A stretch of DNA of 7,197 nt from Candidatus Wukongarchaeum yapensis. Its GTDB lineage: Archaea > Asgardarchaeota > Wukongarchaeia > Wukongarchaeales > Wukongarchaeaceae. The stretch spans positions 1 to 7,197 of the forward strand of contig JAEOSI010000116.1 of assembly GCA_016840425.1 (NCBI GenBank), given 5' to 3'. The position numbers were made by a program, and so were the translations under genes. Each line of letters begins with the position of its first letter. Position 1 is the stretch's first letter. This document shows, in pieces, positions 1-7,197 of the stretch. Under the pieces are notes generated by a model. That model was not told the DNA's origin and did not search any database. It saw only the letters and a program-made list of their open reading frames with translations.

Positions 1-285
1 GTTGTGGGTTTGCTGGAAAACATGTTCTTGTTCAACCATGATGCTTGGAATACCTATTCCTATAGCTCTGTTACATGCATCTCTTGTAAAGTGGTCGTGA
101 GATGTCTTTAATTTCTCTAAAGTTGCTTCTGATCCTGGTGGTGGGGCTACTTTTATGTCAGGGTGCACCATCCCCGCGCCCGCTTCAAAGCCCCATTTTG
201 GCGCTGATACTGGGTGTGGTGCTTCTCCAAAAACCATATCATCAGCAGCGGTATATGCCACGGATGTGTATGCTTTTCTAGCCAT
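1..285 (-). CDS. mtaB: Methanol:corrinoid methyltransferase MtaB, N-terminal 95 aa (continues beyond window start)
   Basis: Hand translation from ATG at 285-283: MARKAYTSVAYTAADDMVFGEAPHPVSAPKWGFEAGAGMVHPDIKVAPPPGSEATLEKLKTSHDHFTRDACNRAIGIGIPSIMVEQEHVFQQTHN, open to base 1. Colinear with the recalled Methanosarcina MtaB N-terminus (YTSMAY..ADEM.FG...PV......E.GAG...P....AP.P...EKL......G.P....ETEHVQQ). GAGGA SD 7 nt upstream; mtaC and mtaA in the same window. Not in the supplied ORF track. Confidence 0.9.
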   Translation of the reverse strand, partial: MARKAYTSVAYTAADDMVFGEAPHPVSAPKWGFEAGAGMVHPDIKVAPPPGSEATLEKLKTSHDHFTRDACNRAIGIGIPSIMVEQEHVFQQTHN

Positions 286-292
286 TATACAT

Positions 293-297
293 TCCTC
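293..297 (-). promoter_or_regulatory. Shine-Dalgarno site of mtaB (GAGGA)
   Basis: Minus strand reads tttGAGGAatgtataATG, a 7-nt spacer. Confidence 0.7.
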
Positions 298-311
298 AAA
301 CTCTTTATTAA

Positions 312-339
312 CCAGATTTCACCTTAGGGTGGAAACTGG
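312..339 (-). other. Stem-loop at the predicted 5' end of the mtaB leader
   Basis: Minus strand CCAGTTTCCACC-CTAA-GGTGAAATCTGG pairs as 11 bp with two single-base bulges and starts about 26 nt downstream of the TATA box. Confidence 0.45.
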
Positions 340-364
340 GTGAGAATTAGGTAGTAAATTCCAG

Positions 365-380
365 TATATATAGTTTTTGG
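365..380 (-). promoter_or_regulatory. BRE + TATA box of mtaB
   Basis: Minus strand CCAAAAAC-TATATATA: purine-rich BRE followed by a TATA box, implying a start site near 340 and a leader of about 55 nt. Confidence 0.6.
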
Positions 381-696
381 TAGTGATGAACGCACTTTTT
401 ATTGTTGCTTGTCCGCGTAGTAAAATTAAAATATTTCTTCACGTAAAATAATTTAACGGAATAGTAAAATAAGAGGGAGGAGGGGATTTGTTTGGTGCTG
501 AGGCGTTATCGCCCTTCTTTAGAAGGGTTTGAAGCGACTCACCCAGCTACACTGTGTGAAATGGGCTTTCATGCGTAGGCTATGAGTTTGGTTCGGTTAT
601 AAGTAACGGGGGAAGAGAGCTGGTATTAAAAATGAAGGTGAGCTCCTTAGGAACGCTTAGTGCCAAGCTGTTCAACAAAAATGTTGGTGATTCCTA

Positions 697-975
697 ATGT
701 TCTGTGAAATGTGCGGTAAATTTACAACAGTTCAGAAATTTATCTCTCCAAGATCAAAGACAATAACCCAGCTAATCTGTGTTTGTCCCAAATGTTTCAA
801 CCAGTTAGGTGAACAAATAACTGCAATTAAAATAGTCTCAGAAATTTTTGAGGGAATAAGATCAAAGATGGAGGATGTTAAACTTTTCCTTTATAACAAT
901 TCACTAGAGTTTGTAAAGGGTTATTTCACAGGAAAGCTTGTTAACTACTTACACAACTTTACCAGTACTAGATAA
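697..975 (+). CDS. Small zinc-ribbon/zinc-finger protein of unknown function (92 aa)
   Basis: CEMC at residues 3-6 and CPKC at residues 30-33 form a CxxC-x23-CxxC pattern. GGTGA SD at 686-690, 6 nt before the ATG. Confidence 0.65.
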   Translation: MFCEMCGKFTTVQKFISPRSKTITQLICVCPKCFNQLGEQITAIKIVSEIFEGIRSKMEDVKLFLYNNSLEFVKGYFTGKLVNYLHNFTSTR

Positions 976-1397
976 TAAAACAAAAAGTAATATAATATCA
1001 CTTTTTCAACAACATATTACCCCGTTTCTCATAAACATAAAAAACGGCGCTAAAAACACTAGCTTACAGTTATATAACCTAAATTACCAAACAAGATGCT
1101 AACAGCGGCTTATACTTTTTTCATCGTTTTAAATACCGCTTTTCTTTATCTTTCAGATTCCTGTTAAATCTCTTTAGGTTTCAGGCTTTTACTCCTTCCT
1201 TCCCTATTTTTTATTTGGTTGTTTTGTGATACATATTTAGGTGTTCCACAAGATAGATTTTTCAGGGAACACTGCCCGTTTTATTCCTAAGCTATAAAGA
1301 AGCAAACAGGTTGGTTTTGGAAGAAGATTTATTGTTCATCATAAAAAACTTTTAGAAGCAGTTCACTCAAAAACCATTTTCCAAAGCATTAAGAATA

Positions 1398-1411
1398 GAA
1401 AAATTTATACA
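1398..1411 (+). promoter_or_regulatory. BRE + TATA box upstream of the 242-aa gene
   Basis: GAAAAA-TTTATACA, 52 and 77 nt before the candidate ATGs at 1463 and 1488. Confidence 0.55.
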
Positions 1412-1462
1412 TACTTACACTCAATCTCTTTGTAATAATGAACTTGTGAGGAGAGACCGCTA

Positions 1463-1501
1463 ATGATATTGGAGGAGATGACTACACATGATATCGGAGG
1501 A
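1463..1501 (+). repeat. Direct repeat of the gene start, ATGATAT(T/C)GGAGGA, 25-nt period
   Basis: 1463-1476 ATGATATTGGAGGA and 1488-1501 ATGATATCGGAGGA, 13/14 identical. The two ATGs are in different frames. Confidence 0.75.
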
Positions 1502-2216
1502 AGAGGTATCAAAAAAAGTTATAGAAAAATTTAATTCGATAGAAGGAGTTATAGGCGTTATACGACTAAATGAAGATCAGGTAATAGATACATTTGGACT
1601 AGAATCTAGAGCTTTAGAAAATGTTCTGGGCGGTCTTGCTAAAGGAGTAAACGAGGGATTAGAAAAAGTTATTCAGAGTGATGCGGTATTTTCGGCATTT
1701 ACGGACAGATCTTTTGAATGGCCTAAAGACTCCCTTTTTCAAATAGTAAGTAGCGACGGAATTATAGGCGAAGAAATACGGGATAAAGAAAAGTTAGAGG
1801 AGTTAAAAAAGTCAGAAAATGTAATCATTATTGGCGATTGTTTCTATATAAAAAAAGATAAACTAGAAAATTGGAAGGCTGTTAAAGAAGGTTTATTCCG
1901 AGCAATATTTCCACCAATAAATTTCAACAGAGAAGTAAAAGATATTCCAGAAGTTGTGGAATGCATTGGATGCTTTACTAGCGGTCCCTGCTTTGAATAT
2001 TTAAAACTGGAGTTTGAGGGTAAAATAGATCTATCAGATCCCGGTTACGGCTTCTTTTTGGTAGGTCTCCGTTTTGACCCAGCTAAAGTCGCTTTTTCAC
2101 CAGGAACTAAGCCTAATGTCTTTTTAAAGAGCCTAAAAAGTCGCCATAAATCAACAGGAGGTCGAAGCCCAAATTTTGAAAAAGTTTATCGAACTTTTTT
2201 CTCAAATAATGTTTAA
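1488..2216 (+). CDS. Hypothetical protein (242 aa), probably a distant member of an uncharacterised archaeal family, with a C-terminal extension
   Basis: Long ORF with promoter, GGAGGA SD (1471-1476) and terminator. Segments NEGLEKV, DGIIGEEI, IFPPINF and FLVG recall a conserved archaeal protein family of unknown function that I cannot name reliably. Function not assignable. Confidence 0.75.
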   Translation: MISEEEVSKKVIEKFNSIEGVIGVIRLNEDQVIDTFGLESRALENVLGGLAKGVNEGLEKVIQSDAVFSAFTDRSFEWPKDSLFQIVSSDGIIGEEIRDKEKLEELKKSENVIIIGDCFYIKKDKLENWKAVKEGLFRAIFPPINFNREVKDIPEVVECIGCFTSGPCFEYLKLEFEGKIDLSDPGYGFFLVGLRFDPAKVAFSPGTKPNVFLKSLKSRHKSTGGRSPNFEKVYRTFFSNNV

Positions 2217-2351
2217 ATTAAAAAATAATAGAAGAAGAATAAGCATCGATATATAAGAAGATCAAACATCTTTTTATCTTATTTTTCTAGCTAAAATATT
2301 TCTTCGTGATTTTTTTCAGTATTATCATTACATCAGTTAAGTATTGATGTT
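2217..2351. terminator. Convergent intergenic region with oligo-T terminator candidates on both strands
   Basis: Plus-strand T tracts at 2270-2286 and T7 at 2310-2316; plus-strand A6 at 2220-2225 reads T6 for the chaperonin transcript. Confidence 0.45.
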
Positions 2352-4070
2352 TTATTGTTTTCTTTCAATACTTTGTTGGAGGTCTGGGAATTCTTCTTCC
2401 ATCATTTTTTGTCCTCTTTTTTTATCTCCTACGTATAATGGTCCTCCAGGTCCTTGTCTCTCAACAAAAATTTTATCTATTCTAAGCACCGTTGTTGCTG
2501 CTTCAAAGGCCCCTAGTAAGATCTGTTTCTTAACGCCTAACGGTTCAAAAATTCCATTTTTCCCTCCAACATCTCCTATAGTACCTCTAAGACAATCAAA
2601 TCCAATGTTAGCTTTTCCGTTTTTATGTTCCATTTTTAGGTTTGCTAACAGCTCTTGAGCGTCAAAACCCGCATTTTTTGCTAGAGCTTCTGGTATGCAT
2701 TCAAGACTTTCAGCGAACTTTTTTACCGCTAATTGTTCCCTTTTACCAAACTTGTAAGCGTGTGATCTAAGTCTTTTTGAAAGCTCCAGTTCAACCGCTC
2801 CACCTCCAACCACCACAAAAGGGTTTTCTATTACATTTTTTACCGCATTTAACCCGTTTTTAATTATTCTGCTAACTTCTCTTGCAACAACGTCAATACC
2901 GCCTCTTACAAGGATTCCAATAGCTTTCGGATCTTCTACCCCCTCTATGAAAATCACCTCTTCATCACCAACCTTACGTCGCTCAAATAGTTCTGCTTTT
3001 CCTAAGTCCTCAGGTTTTAAGTCAAAAATGTCTTGAATCACTCTTGCCCCAGTAGCTTTAACTAATCGCTCCATATCATCAATCAAAGTCTGTTCAATAG
3101 CGGCAATTCCTCTTTTAAATAAAGGCTGATAAAACACATCATCGATCTTTTGTTGGCAAAAAATAACATTAGCCCCTGTTTCAGCAAATTTGCCCACTAT
3201 CTCTTCTATAATATCTCTCTGCTCGTTAGCGAAATCTTCTCTTTGTCCTAATTTAGTAATAACTAATTTTGTGTAACGGGCTTCAGAATGCCTGAAAAAT
3301 AAACCATCCATCGTTTTATTTATAAGCAATATTTTACAATTTTTAATCCTTTTTGGCATATGCTTATAAAAAACCTCTTTATCTATAATCAATCCATTAA
3401 CAATTTTTGTATCTGAAACGCCTCCTCCTTCCCTGCGTGTCAAACCTATATTATCCAAGTCAACTCTCCATTTTTCTCCGTCAACCTTTTCTGCGACCTG
3501 TTTTACTGCTTTTATAATCATATCGGCTAGATTTTGTTCTGAACCTTCTACTGTTTTGTTGTTCATGGTGCTGATTGCAACCCTTTTCAAAACATCATTA
3601 TCTTTATTTATGTCAACAAAGATTGCTATTTCTTTTAAAATCTCGAAAACTTCTTCTAATGCTTTTTTATAACCTTTTATAATCACTGTGGGATGAATTC
3701 CCATCTTTAAAAGTTCTTCAGCTTTTCTGAGAAGTTCACCTGCAATTATAATCACGCTTTTAGTACCATCTCCAACTTCCTCCTCCTGGGCTTCTACAAC
3801 TTTGGTAATAAACTTGGCTATAGGATGCTCAACTTGAGCTGCTTTTATGATTTTTGCCCCATAATTGCTTATAGCGGTGTCAACATCTTGGGGTCTAGGT
3901 CCATGAATGGTCATTAAAATTTTATCTAACCCGTTAGGCCCTAGAGATGTCTTTAACGCTTCTGCAAAAGCTTTAAAAGCCTCAATGTTTATTTTTCTCG
4001 CTTCTTCTCCTTTGATGTATCTGGATCCTTCAGTCCAAATCTGGAGTTTCTCGCTTTCAATCTTGGGCAT
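2352..4070 (-). CDS. ths: Group II chaperonin (thermosome) subunit, divergent paralogue (572 aa)
   Basis: Full-length colinearity with thermosome subunits: SLGPNGLDK, EHPIAK, EVGDGT, AGELLRKAEELL..GIHPT.II.GY, GANVIFCQ..ID, KATGA, LVRGG, GGGAVE, LA.NAG.D, EPL.VK, LRID. GAGGG SD at 4079-4083. Confidence 0.95.
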   Translation of the reverse strand: MPKIESEKLQIWTEGSRYIKGEEARKINIEAFKAFAEALKTSLGPNGLDKILMTIHGPRPQDVDTAISNYGAKIIKAAQVEHPIAKFITKVVEAQEEEVGDGTKSVIIIAGELLRKAEELLKMGIHPTVIIKGYKKALEEVFEILKEIAIFVDINKDNDVLKRVAISTMNNKTVEGSEQNLADMIIKAVKQVAEKVDGEKWRVDLDNIGLTRREGGGVSDTKIVNGLIIDKEVFYKHMPKRIKNCKILLINKTMDGLFFRHSEARYTKLVITKLGQREDFANEQRDIIEEIVGKFAETGANVIFCQQKIDDVFYQPLFKRGIAAIEQTLIDDMERLVKATGARVIQDIFDLKPEDLGKAELFERRKVGDEEVIFIEGVEDPKAIGILVRGGIDVVAREVSRIIKNGLNAVKNVIENPFVVVGGGAVELELSKRLRSHAYKFGKREQLAVKKFAESLECIPEALAKNAGFDAQELLANLKMEHKNGKANIGFDCLRGTIGDVGGKNGIFEPLGVKKQILLGAFEAATTVLRIDKIFVERQGPGGPLYVGDKKRGQKMMEEEFPDLQQSIERKQ

Positions 4071-4123
4071 TTTAAAATCCCTCTAGCGAATAAATTCAAC
4101 TTTTAAAATATATCTAAAATCGC

Positions 4124-4138
4124 TTTATAAATTTGTTC
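4124..4138 (-). promoter_or_regulatory. BRE + TATA box of the chaperonin gene
   Basis: Minus strand GAACAAA-TTTATAAA, TATA at 4131-4124, 54-61 nt before the ATG at 4070. Confidence 0.6.
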
Positions 4139-4140
4139 TT

Positions 4141-4500
4141 TGCTTTCAAAGATTATAAAAAGGTAATAAAAATATAATGATAAGGCAATATAAAAATTGT
4201 GACTTTAATTAACTTAGATTTAATTATGATAAATTATAACTAAGAAAAGAAAAATTCAATTAATTATAATAGAGTATCATTTATTTTACTTAAAAAGTTT
4301 ACAAATCTAAATGTTAAAATTAAAAATCGCTTTAACTTATTAATATTGGAAAAATTCTGTCTCCATAAAATATTTAATAAATATAAAATATGGTATTATT
4401 GAATTATTTCTTAGAGATTAAGCCTATAAGAAAGCCAAATTGTATTTTCCTCTATTATTTTTTAGATATAATTTATACATTTATATTTTATTAAGTAAAT
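4141..4500. other. Extremely AT-rich non-coding spacer between divergent promoters
   Basis: Hand count 58 G+C in 360 nt (16%). No ORF in the track. Confidence 0.8.
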
Positions 4501-4511
4501 CTTTTCGGGAT

Positions 4512-4528
4512 GCGGAATACTTATATAG
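4512..4528 (+). promoter_or_regulatory. BRE + TATA box of mtaC
   Basis: GCGGAATAC-TTATATAG with TATA at 4521-4528; AGGAG SD at 4586-4590; ATG at 4600. Confidence 0.6.
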
Positions 4529-4599
4529 TGCAGGCGGGTTAGAGAACTGCCGAATAGCCATAAACGGAGTGGATAAACCACCCGTAGGAGAGACCGAAA

Positions 4600-5400
4600 A
4601 TGGTAATATTGGCAGATAAAGCAAAAGATCTCAGAACCGTTTTTAGACGTTATAGTCTCGAAGCAGAACCCGCGAGCCCAGACGCCGTAATCAAGACAGG
4701 TTTACCTTCAGACCCCAATTTTTCTAAAGTAGCTAAAGGTGTAATTGATGGAGATGCAGCAGCTGTTGAATCGAGCTTGAAAGCTGCATTTGGTGCAGGA
4801 ATAGACCCATTAACAGCCATTAATGATGGCTTAATCGCTGGAATGAATGTTGTAAGTGACCTCTACGAGAAAGGCCTTTACTACTTGCCCCAAGTAATGA
4901 TCGCAGCTGATGCGATGGCAGTAGGCATAGGCGTATGTGAAGACAAGCTTGGTCACCCAGCTGAAAAGAAAGGGTTAGTAGTCACTCATGTCGCTGAAGG
5001 CGATATCCACGATATAGGAAAAGAAATAGTTAGTGCCTTACTTGCCGCTAATGGATATGAAGTTATTAACCTAGGGAGAGACGTACCCGTAGAGGATGTC
5101 GTCAACACTGTCAGAGAGAAGAAACCTGCCATGGTGACAGGAACAGCCCTTATGACAACAACAATGACCGCTTTTCCAAGAATCGCTGCCCGGCTTAAAG
5201 AGTTGGGTATTGTAATACCGTTTGTTTGCGGCGGAGGAGCCGTTACCAGAGAGTTCGTAGAAGCCTATGATTATGGAATCCACGGCGTTAAAGCCCACCA
5301 CGCTCCACATCTAGCAGCAGCAGCAGTAAAAGGCAAAAGCTGGAAAACAATACGTGAAGATTACGAAGACATCACAGGCGGATACGCCTACAAGTGGTAG
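4600..5400 (+). CDS. mtaC: Corrinoid protein of the methanol methyltransferase system, MtaC (266 aa)
   Basis: Cobalamin His-on motif HVAEGDIHDIGK (DxHxxG), LGRDVP, TGTALMTTTM, CGGGAV, helical cap (GM..V..LY..G...LP.VM..ADAM), and the MtaC-type N-terminal arm VFRRYSL. Adjacent to an MtaA-type gene. Confidence 0.92.
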   Translation: MVILADKAKDLRTVFRRYSLEAEPASPDAVIKTGLPSDPNFSKVAKGVIDGDAAAVESSLKAAFGAGIDPLTAINDGLIAGMNVVSDLYEKGLYYLPQVMIAADAMAVGIGVCEDKLGHPAEKKGLVVTHVAEGDIHDIGKEIVSALLAANGYEVINLGRDVPVEDVVNTVREKKPAMVTGTALMTTTMTAFPRIAARLKELGIVIPFVCGGGAVTREFVEAYDYGIHGVKAHHAPHLAAAAVKGKSWKTIREDYEDITGGYAYKW

Positions 5401-5435
5401 TCCAAAAGCTCGCTTCTTAATCCTAACCTCCCTTA

Positions 5436-5465
5436 TTTTTTTTGTTTTTAGTTTTTTGTTTTTAG
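5436..5465 (+). terminator. Oligo-T terminator candidate after mtaC, built from a tandem 14-mer
   Basis: T8 at 5436-5443; TTTTTTGTTTTTAG occurs exactly twice (5438-5451, 5452-5465). Confidence 0.55.
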
Positions 5466-5503
5466 AGGTGTGTTTTAGTCAAAGTTGTTTTGAGGTGTTT
5501 TTG

Positions 5504-6526
5504 TTGGCTTTAAGTTCAAAAGACCGTGTTATGCTTGCTCTTAAGGGCAAGAAGGATGAGATAGACAGGACCCCTGTTACTTGTGCTAATCAGACGGTTA
5601 CCGTAGAGCAGATGGATAACCTAGGGATTTATTGGCCTGAGGGTCATAGTGATGCTGAGAAGATGGCTCAGCTGGGTATGGCCGCTTATAAGCAGTGTGG
5701 TTTGGAAGTGGCCGATGCTCCCTTTGACCAGGCTGTGGAAGCAGAGATACTGGGTTGCGAAGTGGATCTTGGGAAGAAGAAGGAGTCTATACCTAGTGTT
5801 CCCTTCCACGGGTATAAAGAGCCTGGGGATGTCCCTATCCCTGAAGACTTCCTTGAGAAGGGCAGAATACCTACAGTTTTGAAAGCGATAGAGATCATGA
5901 AAAAGGATGTTGGGGAGGAGGCCCCGGTAATCAGCCATACCAATGGTCCCTTCTCCTTGGCAGGTCATTTAGGGGAAATCAACAAAATCTTGATTATGAT
6001 CCTTAGGACGCCTGAGAAGGTTAAGGAGTTTGCAGAGATAGGGATAGACCTTATCGCTGACTACGCTAACGCTCAGTTTGACGCTGGAGCAGATGTGGTA
6101 ACTGTTGAGGACATGCTTGCCTCCACGGACATCCTAAGCCCTCAAATGTATGATGATTTTGCTGCTCCCTTCAACACCGCCTGCATTAAAAAGATTAAAG
6201 GACCCACCATCCTCCATGTGTGCGGTAAGGGAGACCTTATCGTTGAATCTATGATAGGCTCAGGGGCTACTAACATCAGCGTGGACATGGCTACAGACCT
6301 GAACAAAGCTATCCCAAAAACAAGGGGAAGATGCACAATAATGGGCAGCGTAGACACAATTAAAGCCCTCTTCCAGGGTACACCAGAAATAGTAAGAGAA
6401 CAGGTAATTAGCAACATAAGACAGGGCGTAGACCTCGTAGCACCAGGATGTGCTCTATCACCCCTTACGAAAAGCGAACTCATAAAAGCCATGGTAAACG
6501 CATCAATAGAGTACTTCGCTGAATAA
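5504..6526 (+). CDS. mtaA: Methylcobamide:CoM methyltransferase, MtaA/MtbA family (about 340 aa; start revised from 5354 to TTG 5504)
   Basis: URO-D-like family features: KDRV..ALKG....D.TPV, YWPE.H..AE.MA.L, VEAE.LGCEV, zinc-ligand motifs LHVCG and APGC. GAGGTG SD at 5492-5497 lies 6 nt before in-frame TTG 5504. The tracked 5354 start overlaps mtaC and translates the T-rich terminator. MtaA rather than MtbA is inferred from context only. Confidence 0.88.
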   Translation: MALSSKDRVMLALKGKKDEIDRTPVTCANQTVTVEQMDNLGIYWPEGHSDAEKMAQLGMAAYKQCGLEVADAPFDQAVEAEILGCEVDLGKKKESIPSVPFHGYKEPGDVPIPEDFLEKGRIPTVLKAIEIMKKDVGEEAPVISHTNGPFSLAGHLGEINKILIMILRTPEKVKEFAEIGIDLIADYANAQFDAGADVVTVEDMLASTDILSPQMYDDFAAPFNTACIKKIKGPTILHVCGKGDLIVESMIGSGATNISVDMATDLNKAIPKTRGRCTIMGSVDTIKALFQGTPEIVREQVISNIRQGVDLVAPGCALSPLTKSELIKAMVNASIEYFAE

Positions 6527-6590
6527 TTCTTTAAATAAAAAAGTAGAATTAGAATTGTCTGTCTTAGCGGCTCTTAATTCCTTCAATCCA

Positions 6591-6611
6591 TTTTTTTTTC
6601 ATTGTTTTTTT
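6591..6611 (+). terminator. Oligo-T terminator candidate after mtaA
   Basis: T9 at 6591-6599 and T7 at 6605-6611. A6 at 6537-6542 gives a T6 for the convergent regulator transcript. Confidence 0.55.
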
Positions 6612-6632
6612 GGTAGCTAGTGTTGGTTATAA

Positions 6633-7197
6633 TTAGGTTTCATTTGTTTCATTTGAAAGTCCTTTTTTTAGATTATATCGAATGAAAACCTTGTCGAAAT
6701 TTACGTCTTTTTTCTGTTTTGAAGGTTTTTTCTTTTTCTTCTTTTCTTTTTCTTCTTCTAGGTTGTATCGGATGAAAACTTTGCTGAAATCTATTTTTTT
6801 GGGGGTTGATTTTTCCATTGTTTTTTCTTTTTCTTCTTTTCTTTTTCCAAATAAATCGATGGGTTTCCCTGGCGCTATTTTTAGCCCATGTTCTAGAAAA
6901 ACTTCTTTTTCTTCTTTATCTATTTCTTCCTCCTCTATTTTACTTTCTTCTATGATCTCGATTATCCGGTGACCTTTAGGGGTTATAACCCAAAACTTCA
7001 TGCTCAAAGGCTTATTTTCATCTTCCTTTTTTACGAACTCAACTAGTCCTAAATCTTCAAAAATTTTTAGGGCAGCGCTGACATTTCGAGAAGCTGTTTT
7101 AATTTTTTTCGCTATTTGGTTAACATAGCTTGGTAAAGACTGTTCTGCGAGAAATTTAAGGACTTTTCGACGGACTTTGCTTCTTTCAAGCAACTCT
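6633..7197 (-). CDS. ArsR-like winged-HTH transcriptional regulator with charged low-complexity tail; 5' end probably outside the window
   Basis: RSKVRRKVLKFL...PSYVNQIAKKI.....NVSAAL..FEDLGLVE......FWVITPKG fits an archaeal wHTH helix/wing pattern. The tracked start is TTG 7193-7191, but the frame stays open (GAG at 7196-7194) to the window edge. Confidence 0.8.
   Translation of the reverse strand, partial: ELLERSKVRRKVLKFLAEQSLPSYVNQIAKKIKTASRNVSAALKIFEDLGLVEFVKKEDENKPLSMKFWVITPKGHRIIEIIEESKIEEEEIDKEEKEVFLEHGLKIAPGKPIDLFGKRKEEKEKTMEKSTPKKIDFSKVFIRYNLEEEKEKKKKKKPSKQKKDVNFDKVFIRYNLKKGLSNETNET
6669..6790 (-). repeat. Imperfect 32-nt duplication, 90-nt period, encoding F-x-KVFIRYNL twice
   Basis: 6669-6700 versus 6759-6790: 26/32 identical. 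Encodes NFDKVFIRYNL and DFSKVFIRYNL. Confidence 0.9.

Follow-up and report, generated by a model that had tools for sequence, protein, structure and literature searches.

The stretch of DNA considered here, referred to as the window, is the entire 7.2 kb contig C111 (7,197 nucleotides) of Candidatus Wukongarchaeum yapensis, and it carries a methanol:corrinoid methyltransferase (mta) locus next to the gene of an EarA-like regulator whose C-terminal tail contains two peptides that match the N-terminal arm of the corrinoid protein MtaC. The window holds seven open reading frames (ORFs), namely mtaB, a Cys4 zinc-ribbon ORF, the gene of a 242-amino-acid (aa) protein, a thermosome paralog, mtaC, mtaA and the regulator. 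Both their number and their family calls, which had been put forward earlier from the nucleotide letters (the original prediction), were upheld by the ORF listing and profile searches. The genome measures 2.16 Mb on 277 contigs and is 92% complete. Both ends of the window are assembly breaks without biological meaning: contig C84 joins the left end through an exact 144-bp overlap and holds the remainder of mtaB, and C56 overlaps the right end and encodes the first 9 codons of the regulator together with a 219-aa B12-binding protein.

The genes mtaB (minus strand) and mtaC-mtaA (4600-6526, plus strand) lie on opposite strands and 4.3 kb apart and therefore form separate transcription units, as had been predicted. 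A search of the genome found one mtaB and one true mtaC with no second copy of either, and the continuation of mtaB on C84 leads into a hydantoinase-like gene, so that no mtaC lies directly downstream of it. In a comparison set of 80 diverse mta loci outside this one, on which all locus counts below are based, mtaB directly adjoins mtaC on the same strand in 63, which agrees with the earlier statement that the two genes are usually co-transcribed.

The regulator tail and the MtaC arm

The N-terminal arm is a segment specific to MtaC which, according to the published description, inserts into the inter-subunit groove of an MtaB dimer, and docking to MtaB is the only role documented for this N-terminal segment. 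Across 120 aligned MtaC homologs, the arm follows the consensus ADFSNIFKRYDLDIEG, or [DN][FY][ST][NK][IV]F.RY[DN][LV], which the regulator tail repeats IDFSKVFIRYNL and NFDKVFIRYNL match far beyond chance. A profile of 16 positions, built from 115 MtaCs from outside this genus, was compared with every six-frame ORF in the genome (32,911 in all); it placed the regulator first (E 1.6e-8, 34.4 bits, two domains) and gave the next ORF E 0.55; the ranking was unchanged with softer profile weightings. The claim that the regulator tail carries MtaC-arm-like peptides is thereby borne out. Both repeats are retained in all five orthologs (75-97% identity) found in a collection of 5.8 billion proteins, in which the lysine- and glutamate-rich linkers vary. 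The regulator family consists of ten proteins at E <=1e-3 among 1.84 billion representatives, and the tail occurs in the orthologs only, whose gene adjoins mtaA and that of the RACo activase in every ortholog locus.

The arm of the organism's own MtaC (DL-TVFRRYSL, DLRTVFRRYSLE) has drifted from the family consensus. It falls outside the 25 best domain matches to the arm profile, of which the two regulator copies are the top two, and the tail repeats (KIDFSKVFIRYNLEEE and VNFDKVFIRYNLKKG) fit the consensus better than it does. It can be aligned with the arm of the Methanosarcina barkeri protein, in which SLKKVLTRYNVALEKA (2i2x_B residues 8-23) corresponds to DLRTVFRRYSLEAEPA of this MtaC. Since the regulator copies are nearer to the family consensus than to the local MtaC, a recent local duplication is unlikely. 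The resemblance could in principle be a non-functional relic or the product of chance, such as a 5' fragment of mtaC that became fused to the regulator gene, and it is true that the motifs are short and clear in one lineage only. However, an E value of 1.6e-8 genome-wide, the presence of two copies and cores that are invariant while the linkers diverge make this explanation very hard to credit.

The N-terminal domain of the regulator shows a winged-helix secondary-structure pattern in a low-confidence AlphaFold2 model; the whole-protein predicted local distance difference test (pLDDT) score was 38 and only the secondary-structure pattern was therefore used. The assignment of the protein as a mimic regulator is well supported. 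In addition to the two repeats, the tail has an invariant motif in its middle, EVFLEHGLKIAPGKPIDLFGKRKE (6810-6880, regulator residues ~107-129), which is loosely like the Methanosuratincola-type MtaC arm and the segment that follows it, MFKRYNVIIEGPAIKPEDD, and may represent a third, degenerate docking element.

Table 1. Features of the window with their positions, strands and distinguishing characteristics
Feature	Position	Strand	Characteristics
mtaB, codons 1-95	1..285	-	PF12176 88.8 bits and NF040651; continues on C84
Divergent intergenic region mtaB / zinc-ribbon ORF	286..696		includes GC-richer block 467-655
Zinc-ribbon ORF	697..975	+	92 aa; Cys4 (CxxC...CxxC), four Cys kept
242-aa protein	1488..2216	+	uncharacterised mta-linked family; lineage-specific 45-aa C-terminal extension (~2079-2213)
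Degenerate thermosome (group II chaperonin) paralog	2352..4070	-	572 aa; PF00118 495.3 bits, NF041082 538.6 (cut-off 450)
Divergent promoter region thermosome paralog / mtaC	4071..4599		AT-rich (~22% GC); 87% identical in sister species
mtaC	4600..5400	+	266-aa corrinoid protein; PF02607 67.5 bits, PF02310 76.7 bits, TIGR02370 218 bits (cut-off 215.3)
MtaC N-terminal arm, KDLRTVFRRYSLEAE	about 4624-4665	+	
mtaA-type (URO-D family) methylcorrinoid methyltransferase	5501..6526	+	start within 5501-5531; NF004889 329.5 bits (cut-off 244), PF01208
Regulator tail	6633..6926	-	K/E-rich, apparently unstructured; invariant mid motif VFLEHGLKIAPGKPIDLF and two arm copies
Arm copy 2, NFDKVFIRYNLK	6666..6701	-	16.1-bit domain match to MtaC-arm profile; conserved
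Arm copy 1, KIDFSKVFIRYNL	6756..6794	-	19.0-bit domain match to MtaC-arm profile; core invariant in 5 orthologs
EarA-like winged-helix DNA-binding domain of regulator	6927..7197	-	PF07381 34.9 bits (cut-off 22), residues 3-81; whole regulator 6633-7197

Modelled docking and the proposed control of mta expression

A complex of two MtaB copies with regulator tail residues 136-196 was modelled alongside three controls. The tail on the MtaB dimer reached an interface score (ipSAE) of 0.78, compared with 0.01 for the best of the three controls and 0.00 for the control in which MtaB was replaced; in calibration, the mark was attained by 51 of 78 solved complexes and by 2 of 108 mismatched pairs. The model runs share at least 72% of contacts and the pLDDT of the partner is at least 56. 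In the model, repeat 1 (residues 144-155) lies on one protomer, where it meets MtaB residues 38-39, 75-80, 117-119 and 338-346. Repeat 2 (residues 173-186) lies on the same residues of the second protomer, and each repeat also touches the opposite protomer within 358-364 (359-360 in the case of repeat 1). The modelled pose is bivalent and two-fold and is situated in the inter-subunit groove, as has been published for the MtaC arm.

It is proposed that MtaB dimers whose grooves are not filled by MtaC would capture both decoys of the regulator bivalently and that this capture would alter the activity of the regulator at the mta promoters, such that expression of mtaB and/or mtaC-mtaA would be tied to the amount of unpartnered MtaB. 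MtaC would displace the regulator by competition, the output of the regulator would report the MtaB:MtaC balance, and MtaB would in effect act as a trigger enzyme. We infer this wiring in all its parts, from the binding of the tail and its displacement by MtaC to the choice of DNA targets and whether control is positive or negative, and likewise the assembly-factor roles considered below. The overall reading, of a lineage-specific methanol:corrinoid methyltransferase locus whose EarA-like regulator carries two decoy MtaC arms and thereby couples mta expression to unpartnered MtaB, stands in our judgement about evenly poised between right and wrong. In the literature searched, there was no description of a regulator with tandem docking-peptide copies of a partner subunit, nor of subunit-balance control of this kind.

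A number of points weigh against this reading. Its support is computational throughout. As the MtaBC complex (2I2X) has already been solved, the passing score of the model may be a matter of memory, so that it shows likeness to the MtaC arm rather than binding; furthermore, a three-chain job is unlike the calibration set, and the modelled site was likened to the crystallographic arm site by its published description rather than by the 2I2X coordinates. The drift of the organism's own MtaC arm from the consensus implies that the groove may have changed too. An operator search in the promoter regions found no conserved 9-mer common to at least three of them, and the sole conserved 7- or 8-mer is the Shine-Dalgarno-like GGAGAGAC. 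No significant arm match was found in non-MtaC ORFs among the 80 mta loci, and the Methanosarcinales loci scanned likewise had no arm match outside MtaC; the regulator family is tiny and the comparative support comes from one genus and one marginal case.

The same motif and docking evidence would apply if the DNA-binding domain served an unrelated regulon and the tail bound MtaB for another purpose, either to cap the MtaC groove of newly made MtaB as a placeholder or inhibitor, or to localise MtaB by tethering it. Such an arrangement would accord with the lack of an operator in the search of the mta promoters and with the control of unrelated genes by EarA-family proteins elsewhere. It is nevertheless considered unlikely: in each ortholog locus the gene has mtaA and RACo as its neighbours, stoichiometric capping would require the regulator to be about as plentiful as an abundant enzyme, which transcription factors usually are not, and the candidate from Methanohalarchaeum described below is likewise a DNA-binding protein that is encoded between mtaC and mtaB.

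A different possibility is that the arm motif is recognised by some other protein to which both MtaC and the regulator bind (the RACo activase, MtaA, the degenerate thermosome or a protease, for instance), and that the two would compete for this protein instead of for MtaB. The conserved cluster does encode RACo and the thermosome paralog. The closest tail-bearing homolog of the regulator that is not an ortholog is P0246 (105 aa, L110:10001-10318); its gene comes immediately behind those of hydantoinase, cobW and RACo, and the retrieved 14 kb contains no mta gene. P0246 ends in VVRRYDYEIENR (NIPVVRRYDYEIENR), but this tail is without a score against the arm profile, the segment VVRRYDYEIE reaching only 2.5 bits, and it was rejected as an arm mimic. 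As both repeats are placed confidently on MtaB by the model, the score falls to 0.00 once MtaB is replaced, and docking to MtaB is the only role documented for the MtaC N-terminal segment, another partner is distinctly improbable.

The control of mta expression by decoy arms may not be restricted to the Asgard lineage. The best match outside the regulator family is a 139-aa ArsR/MarR winged-helix gene of Candidatus Methanohalarchaeum thermophilum HMET1 (L048:10885-11301, minus strand), which separates mtaC from mtaB and is read from the opposite strand. Its product ends in EAKYQRVFKRYDS (KYQRVFKRYDS), to be compared with the arm of that organism's own MtaC, EYENVFSRYDVKAE (EYENVFSRYD), and its seven paralogs are shorter and without an arm-like tail. 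The match has an E value of ~0.7 database-wide and of ~0.02 if scaled to mta-adjacent proteins only, the latter being our own scaling. A sister genome has two adjacent mtaCB pairs and no such regulator gene, and no orthologs were found in the class of this archaeon at E 1e-10. The gene is a probable second mimic regulator on the basis of its sequence. The expectation that the tail motif would co-occur with unlinked mtaB and mtaC holds in so far as both mimic-bearing lineages have separate units, which amounts to two lineages only. A tentative generalisation, which we would sooner doubt than accept, is that archaea with unlinked mtaB and mtaC balance these subunits by decoy-carrying regulators that would count free MtaB dimers through bivalent tail capture, and that such regulators arose at least twice on unrelated winged-helix scaffolds, EarA-like in the Asgard lineage and ArsR/MarR-like in Methanohalarchaeum.

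Neighbouring genes and regulatory DNA

The catalytic genes are typical of the Mta families. MtaB, of which the full length is 462 aa in L009, a near-identical metagenome contig, matches 2i2x_A with an E value of 5.6e-138 over residues 1-461 of that copy, and the continuation on C84 scores 547.5 bits to the MtaB profile. The columns of the MtaB alignment keep a glutamate (METMGG) and two cysteines (DTNC and KDCAYE), at the positions of the zinc ligands Glu164, Cys220 and Cys269 of the M. barkeri enzyme. MtaC matches 2i2x_B (E 1.5e-66) with the N-terminal arm within the alignment, has the B12-binding_2 cap (PF02607) and contains GDIHDIG, the DxHxxG motif of the B12-binding Rossmann domain (PF02310); its scores to the equivalog models NF040669 and NF040655 are below the cut-offs. 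MtaA scores 288 to TIGR01463 (cut-off 235.4) and 312.8 to the equivalog model NF040654, under the cut-off of 400, and the gene call in L009 is 341 aa. Neither McrA nor CdhC has a match in the 92% complete genome, which means that the organism is no methanogen on present evidence; an MtrH-like gene is found on C68.

The full gene order in L009 and in L010, a contig of a sister species with the NCBI label Candidatus Hodarchaeota, is cobW, RACo activase, B12-binding protein, regulator, mtaA, mtaC, thermosome paralog, 242-aa gene, zinc-ribbon ORF, mtaB and hydantoinase. The cobW, RACo and hydantoinase-like genes and the second B12-binding protein flank the window and were not mentioned in the original prediction. 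The hydantoinase/oxoprolinase-like gene (680 aa; L001:1560-2738 on contig C84, L009:18481-20400) is located 3' of mtaB, from which it is separated by a 310-bp gap on C84, and its homologs occur near mta genes in 11 of the 80 loci, all of Methanosarcinales or Methanomassiliicoccaceae, and also in the P0246 cluster. At least 10 studies of marine, mangrove and marsh sediments yielded metagenomes with near-identical DNA. The genes mtaA, mtaB and mtaC, as well as the thermosome paralog and the regulator gene at its 3' end, are covered by contigs of two metatranscriptome libraries, in which parts of the window are not represented. These assembled contigs suggest that the genes are transcribed, although the evidence is weak because DNA carry-over is possible.

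The thermosome paralog is one of three group II chaperonin genes in the genome, the other two being canonical thermosome genes in tandem (G000:C266:1972-5147) to which it is 37-41% identical; it is at most 46% identical to anything outside the genus, and its score of 529.5 to the subfamily model TIGR02339 is below the cut-off of 671. In the paralog the Asp of TNDG is replaced (D70Y), as is the Asp of the H-D-A motif (D405N), GDGTTT has become GDGTKS and 6 aa are inserted. Both altered positions are Asp in 119 of 119 canonical thermosomes (the two on C266 and 117 others) and the replacements are common to three orthologs, which upholds the description of the gene as a degenerate chaperonin. The two residues are presumably the nucleotide-site equivalents of GroEL D52 and D398, and by this analogy ATP hydrolysis by the paralog would probably be impaired. 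The retention of the altered residues at 87-95% identity suggests that a non-canonical role has been selected. Counted without regard to type, thermosome genes lie near mtaC in two of the 80 loci.

The 242-aa protein has no Pfam or NCBIfam match. Its family (~190 aa) occurs 2-4 kb from mtaB, mtaC or mtaA in 13 of the 80 loci (L028, L029, L032, L051, L052, L057, L058, L061, L062, L070, L084, L085 and L097), with hosts among the Desulfobacterales and other bacteria, the Methanomethyliaceae, other Thermoproteota and Methanobacterium. The AlphaFold2 model has a pLDDT of 84 and its relatives in the AlphaFold DB are all uncharacterised. A structural comparison gave VIA Z scores of 5-7.0 (below 8), the best match being 3eo8_A with a root-mean-square deviation of 3.7 over 129 aligned residues; the structural matches are almost only of nitroreductase, BluB and iodotyrosine-deiodinase folds, nearly all of the top 46 matches listed having the nitroreductase fold. 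A Foldseek search of the PDB found nothing at E <=1e-3, and the scores of an ESM Atlas feature search (<=0.81) were uninformative. A role in flavin or corrinoid handling would be a guess from these models. Among the accessory genes other than the regulator, cross-lineage linkage to mta genes is confined to the 242-aa family, RACo, cobW and the hydantoinase-like gene.

The original prediction had also allowed for a second protein with an arm-like peptide, and this did not hold up: the tail of the 242-aa protein (NFEKVYRTFF) has no score against the arm profile and was dismissed as a second mimic. Two short ORFs were likewise discarded, namely a 59-aa ORF (4440-4619, FFRYNL), which is out of frame in L010 and lies within TATA-like AT-rich DNA, and a 28-aa ORF (492-578, VLRRY), the amino acids of which are not conserved in the sister species. 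The zinc-ribbon ORF has an ortholog of 127 aa in L010, the remainder of which is found here in another frame (938-1102), and judged from this comparison it is probably frameshifted relative to the ortholog. One contig of a related mangrove strain appears, on weak evidence, to join position 660 to 1067 and thus to skip the ORF.

It had further been proposed that the seven genes make up a dedicated assembly and regulation system, in which, beside the mimic regulator, zinc-dependent MtaB without a partner would be in the care of the degenerate thermosome and the zinc-ribbon protein. The gene order is conserved in the sister species and strains, the altered catalytic residues of the thermosome paralog are kept as described, the paralog appears in an RNA library (weakly, as noted) and cobW, a putative metallochaperone GTPase, is nearby. 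However, the seven-gene arrangement was found in this genus only, the paralog is not closely matched elsewhere, thermosome genes seldom accompany mtaC, and the zinc-ribbon ORF is cut short in this genome and may be missing from the related strain. Within 400 genomes of the phylum, MtaB is confined to this genus and to two genomes of another genus, in which the context is different. A role of the thermosome paralog and the zinc-ribbon ORF in MtaB and MtaC handling, drawn from adjacency within one genus, is a conjecture, and a dedicated seven-gene system is regarded as unlikely. The original prediction had named separation of the genes in other genomes as grounds for rejection, and by its own standard the system as a whole is therefore a lineage-specific arrangement. 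What remains of its observations are the ORFs, the separate units, the regulator tail and the degenerate chaperonin, and of its interpretation the tail mimicry and the single mtaC; the second mimic protein and a system that extends beyond one genus do not.

Within the divergent region upstream of the zinc-ribbon ORF, the non-coding block 467-655 is strongly conserved in the sister species, where it is partly duplicated (in alignment with L010 and L009). As a candidate RNA element the block was rejected, with no Rfam match at E up to 1, a z score of 0.28 against shuffles and no covariation or compensatory pairs, and a tRNA search of the window found none. The sequence GGAGAGACC precedes the start codons of mtaC (4586-4599) and of the 219-aa B12-binding gene (L009 ~9451-9465) and is also found at 1449-1462, 25 nucleotides ahead of where the 242-aa gene starts; it may serve these genes as a common ribosome-binding site or leader. 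A T-rich tract of 34 nucleotides (5431-5464) is situated between mtaC and mtaA and could be an archaeal oligo-T terminator or attenuator that sets the mtaC:mtaA ratio.

Comparison with known systems

It has long been asked how cells keep subunits in balance when these are encoded in separate transcription units, and few mechanisms are known beyond the ribosomal proteins. If the proposed control is true, a regulator with tandem docking peptides would be a simple subunit-balance mechanism that is recognisable from sequence, and a protein-level counterpart of ribosomal-protein mRNA mimicry. It would also offer a general search strategy, in which the docking peptide of a subunit is profiled and neighbouring regulators are scanned with it. 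Apart from this, the locus shows that methanol methyltransferase genes occur in a sediment archaeon of Asgard affiliation without an mcrA match. It also provides, from an Asgard-type lineage, a chaperonin paralog in which catalytic residues are altered, and a member of an uncharacterised, possibly flavoprotein-like family that accompanies mta genes in bacteria as well as archaea.

MtaA, MtaB and MtaC are homologous to those of the MtaABC methanol:coenzyme M methyltransferase of M. barkeri (MtaBC structure 2I2X), with the MtaC arm aligned and DxHxxG kept. In contrast to M. barkeri, mtaB is not co-transcribed with mtaC, the genome is without an mcrA or CdhC match, and the locus adds the mimic regulator, the degenerate thermosome and the 242-aa family protein. 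The Msr regulators (MsrA-F) are winged-helix-type proteins encoded beside the mtaCB operons of Methanosarcina. The regulator described here shares with them both this type of fold and a place beside methanol methyltransferase genes but belongs to a different family, and Msr regulators are not known to have an MtaC-arm-like tail. EarA is the activator of the archaellum operon of Methanococcus maripaludis. The N-terminal domain of the regulator matches the same family (PF07381), but its context is an mta/RACo cluster rather than archaellum genes, and the 100-aa tail with its arm repeats is absent from all other members of the EarA family found. The degenerate thermosome may be set beside the animal proteins BBS6, BBS10 and BBS12, which are divergent group II chaperonins that act as dedicated assembly factors. 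The paralog is also a group II chaperonin with altered ATP-site residues and possibly a single client, but this client is guessed from gene adjacency and the paralog is confined to one archaeal genus.

The proposed mechanism itself has two precedents. The C-terminal tails of TnrA and GlnR of Bacillus subtilis reportedly bind glutamine synthetase, a trigger enzyme. As in these proteins, it is a short C-terminal tail of a DNA-binding protein that is proposed to bind a metabolic enzyme, the state of which would set expression. In contrast to them, the tail copies the docking peptide of a partner subunit in tandem and what would be sensed is subunit occupancy rather than a feedback-inhibited enzyme; the families are unrelated, and binding is in the present case modelled. 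The second precedent is that of ribosomal protein operons, which are autoregulated by mRNA mimics of the rRNA binding site. The logic would be alike, in that a decoy of the partner captures an unassembled component and feeds back on its synthesis, but the decoy would here be a peptide on a transcription factor instead of an RNA, and the component captured would be the subunit of an enzyme.

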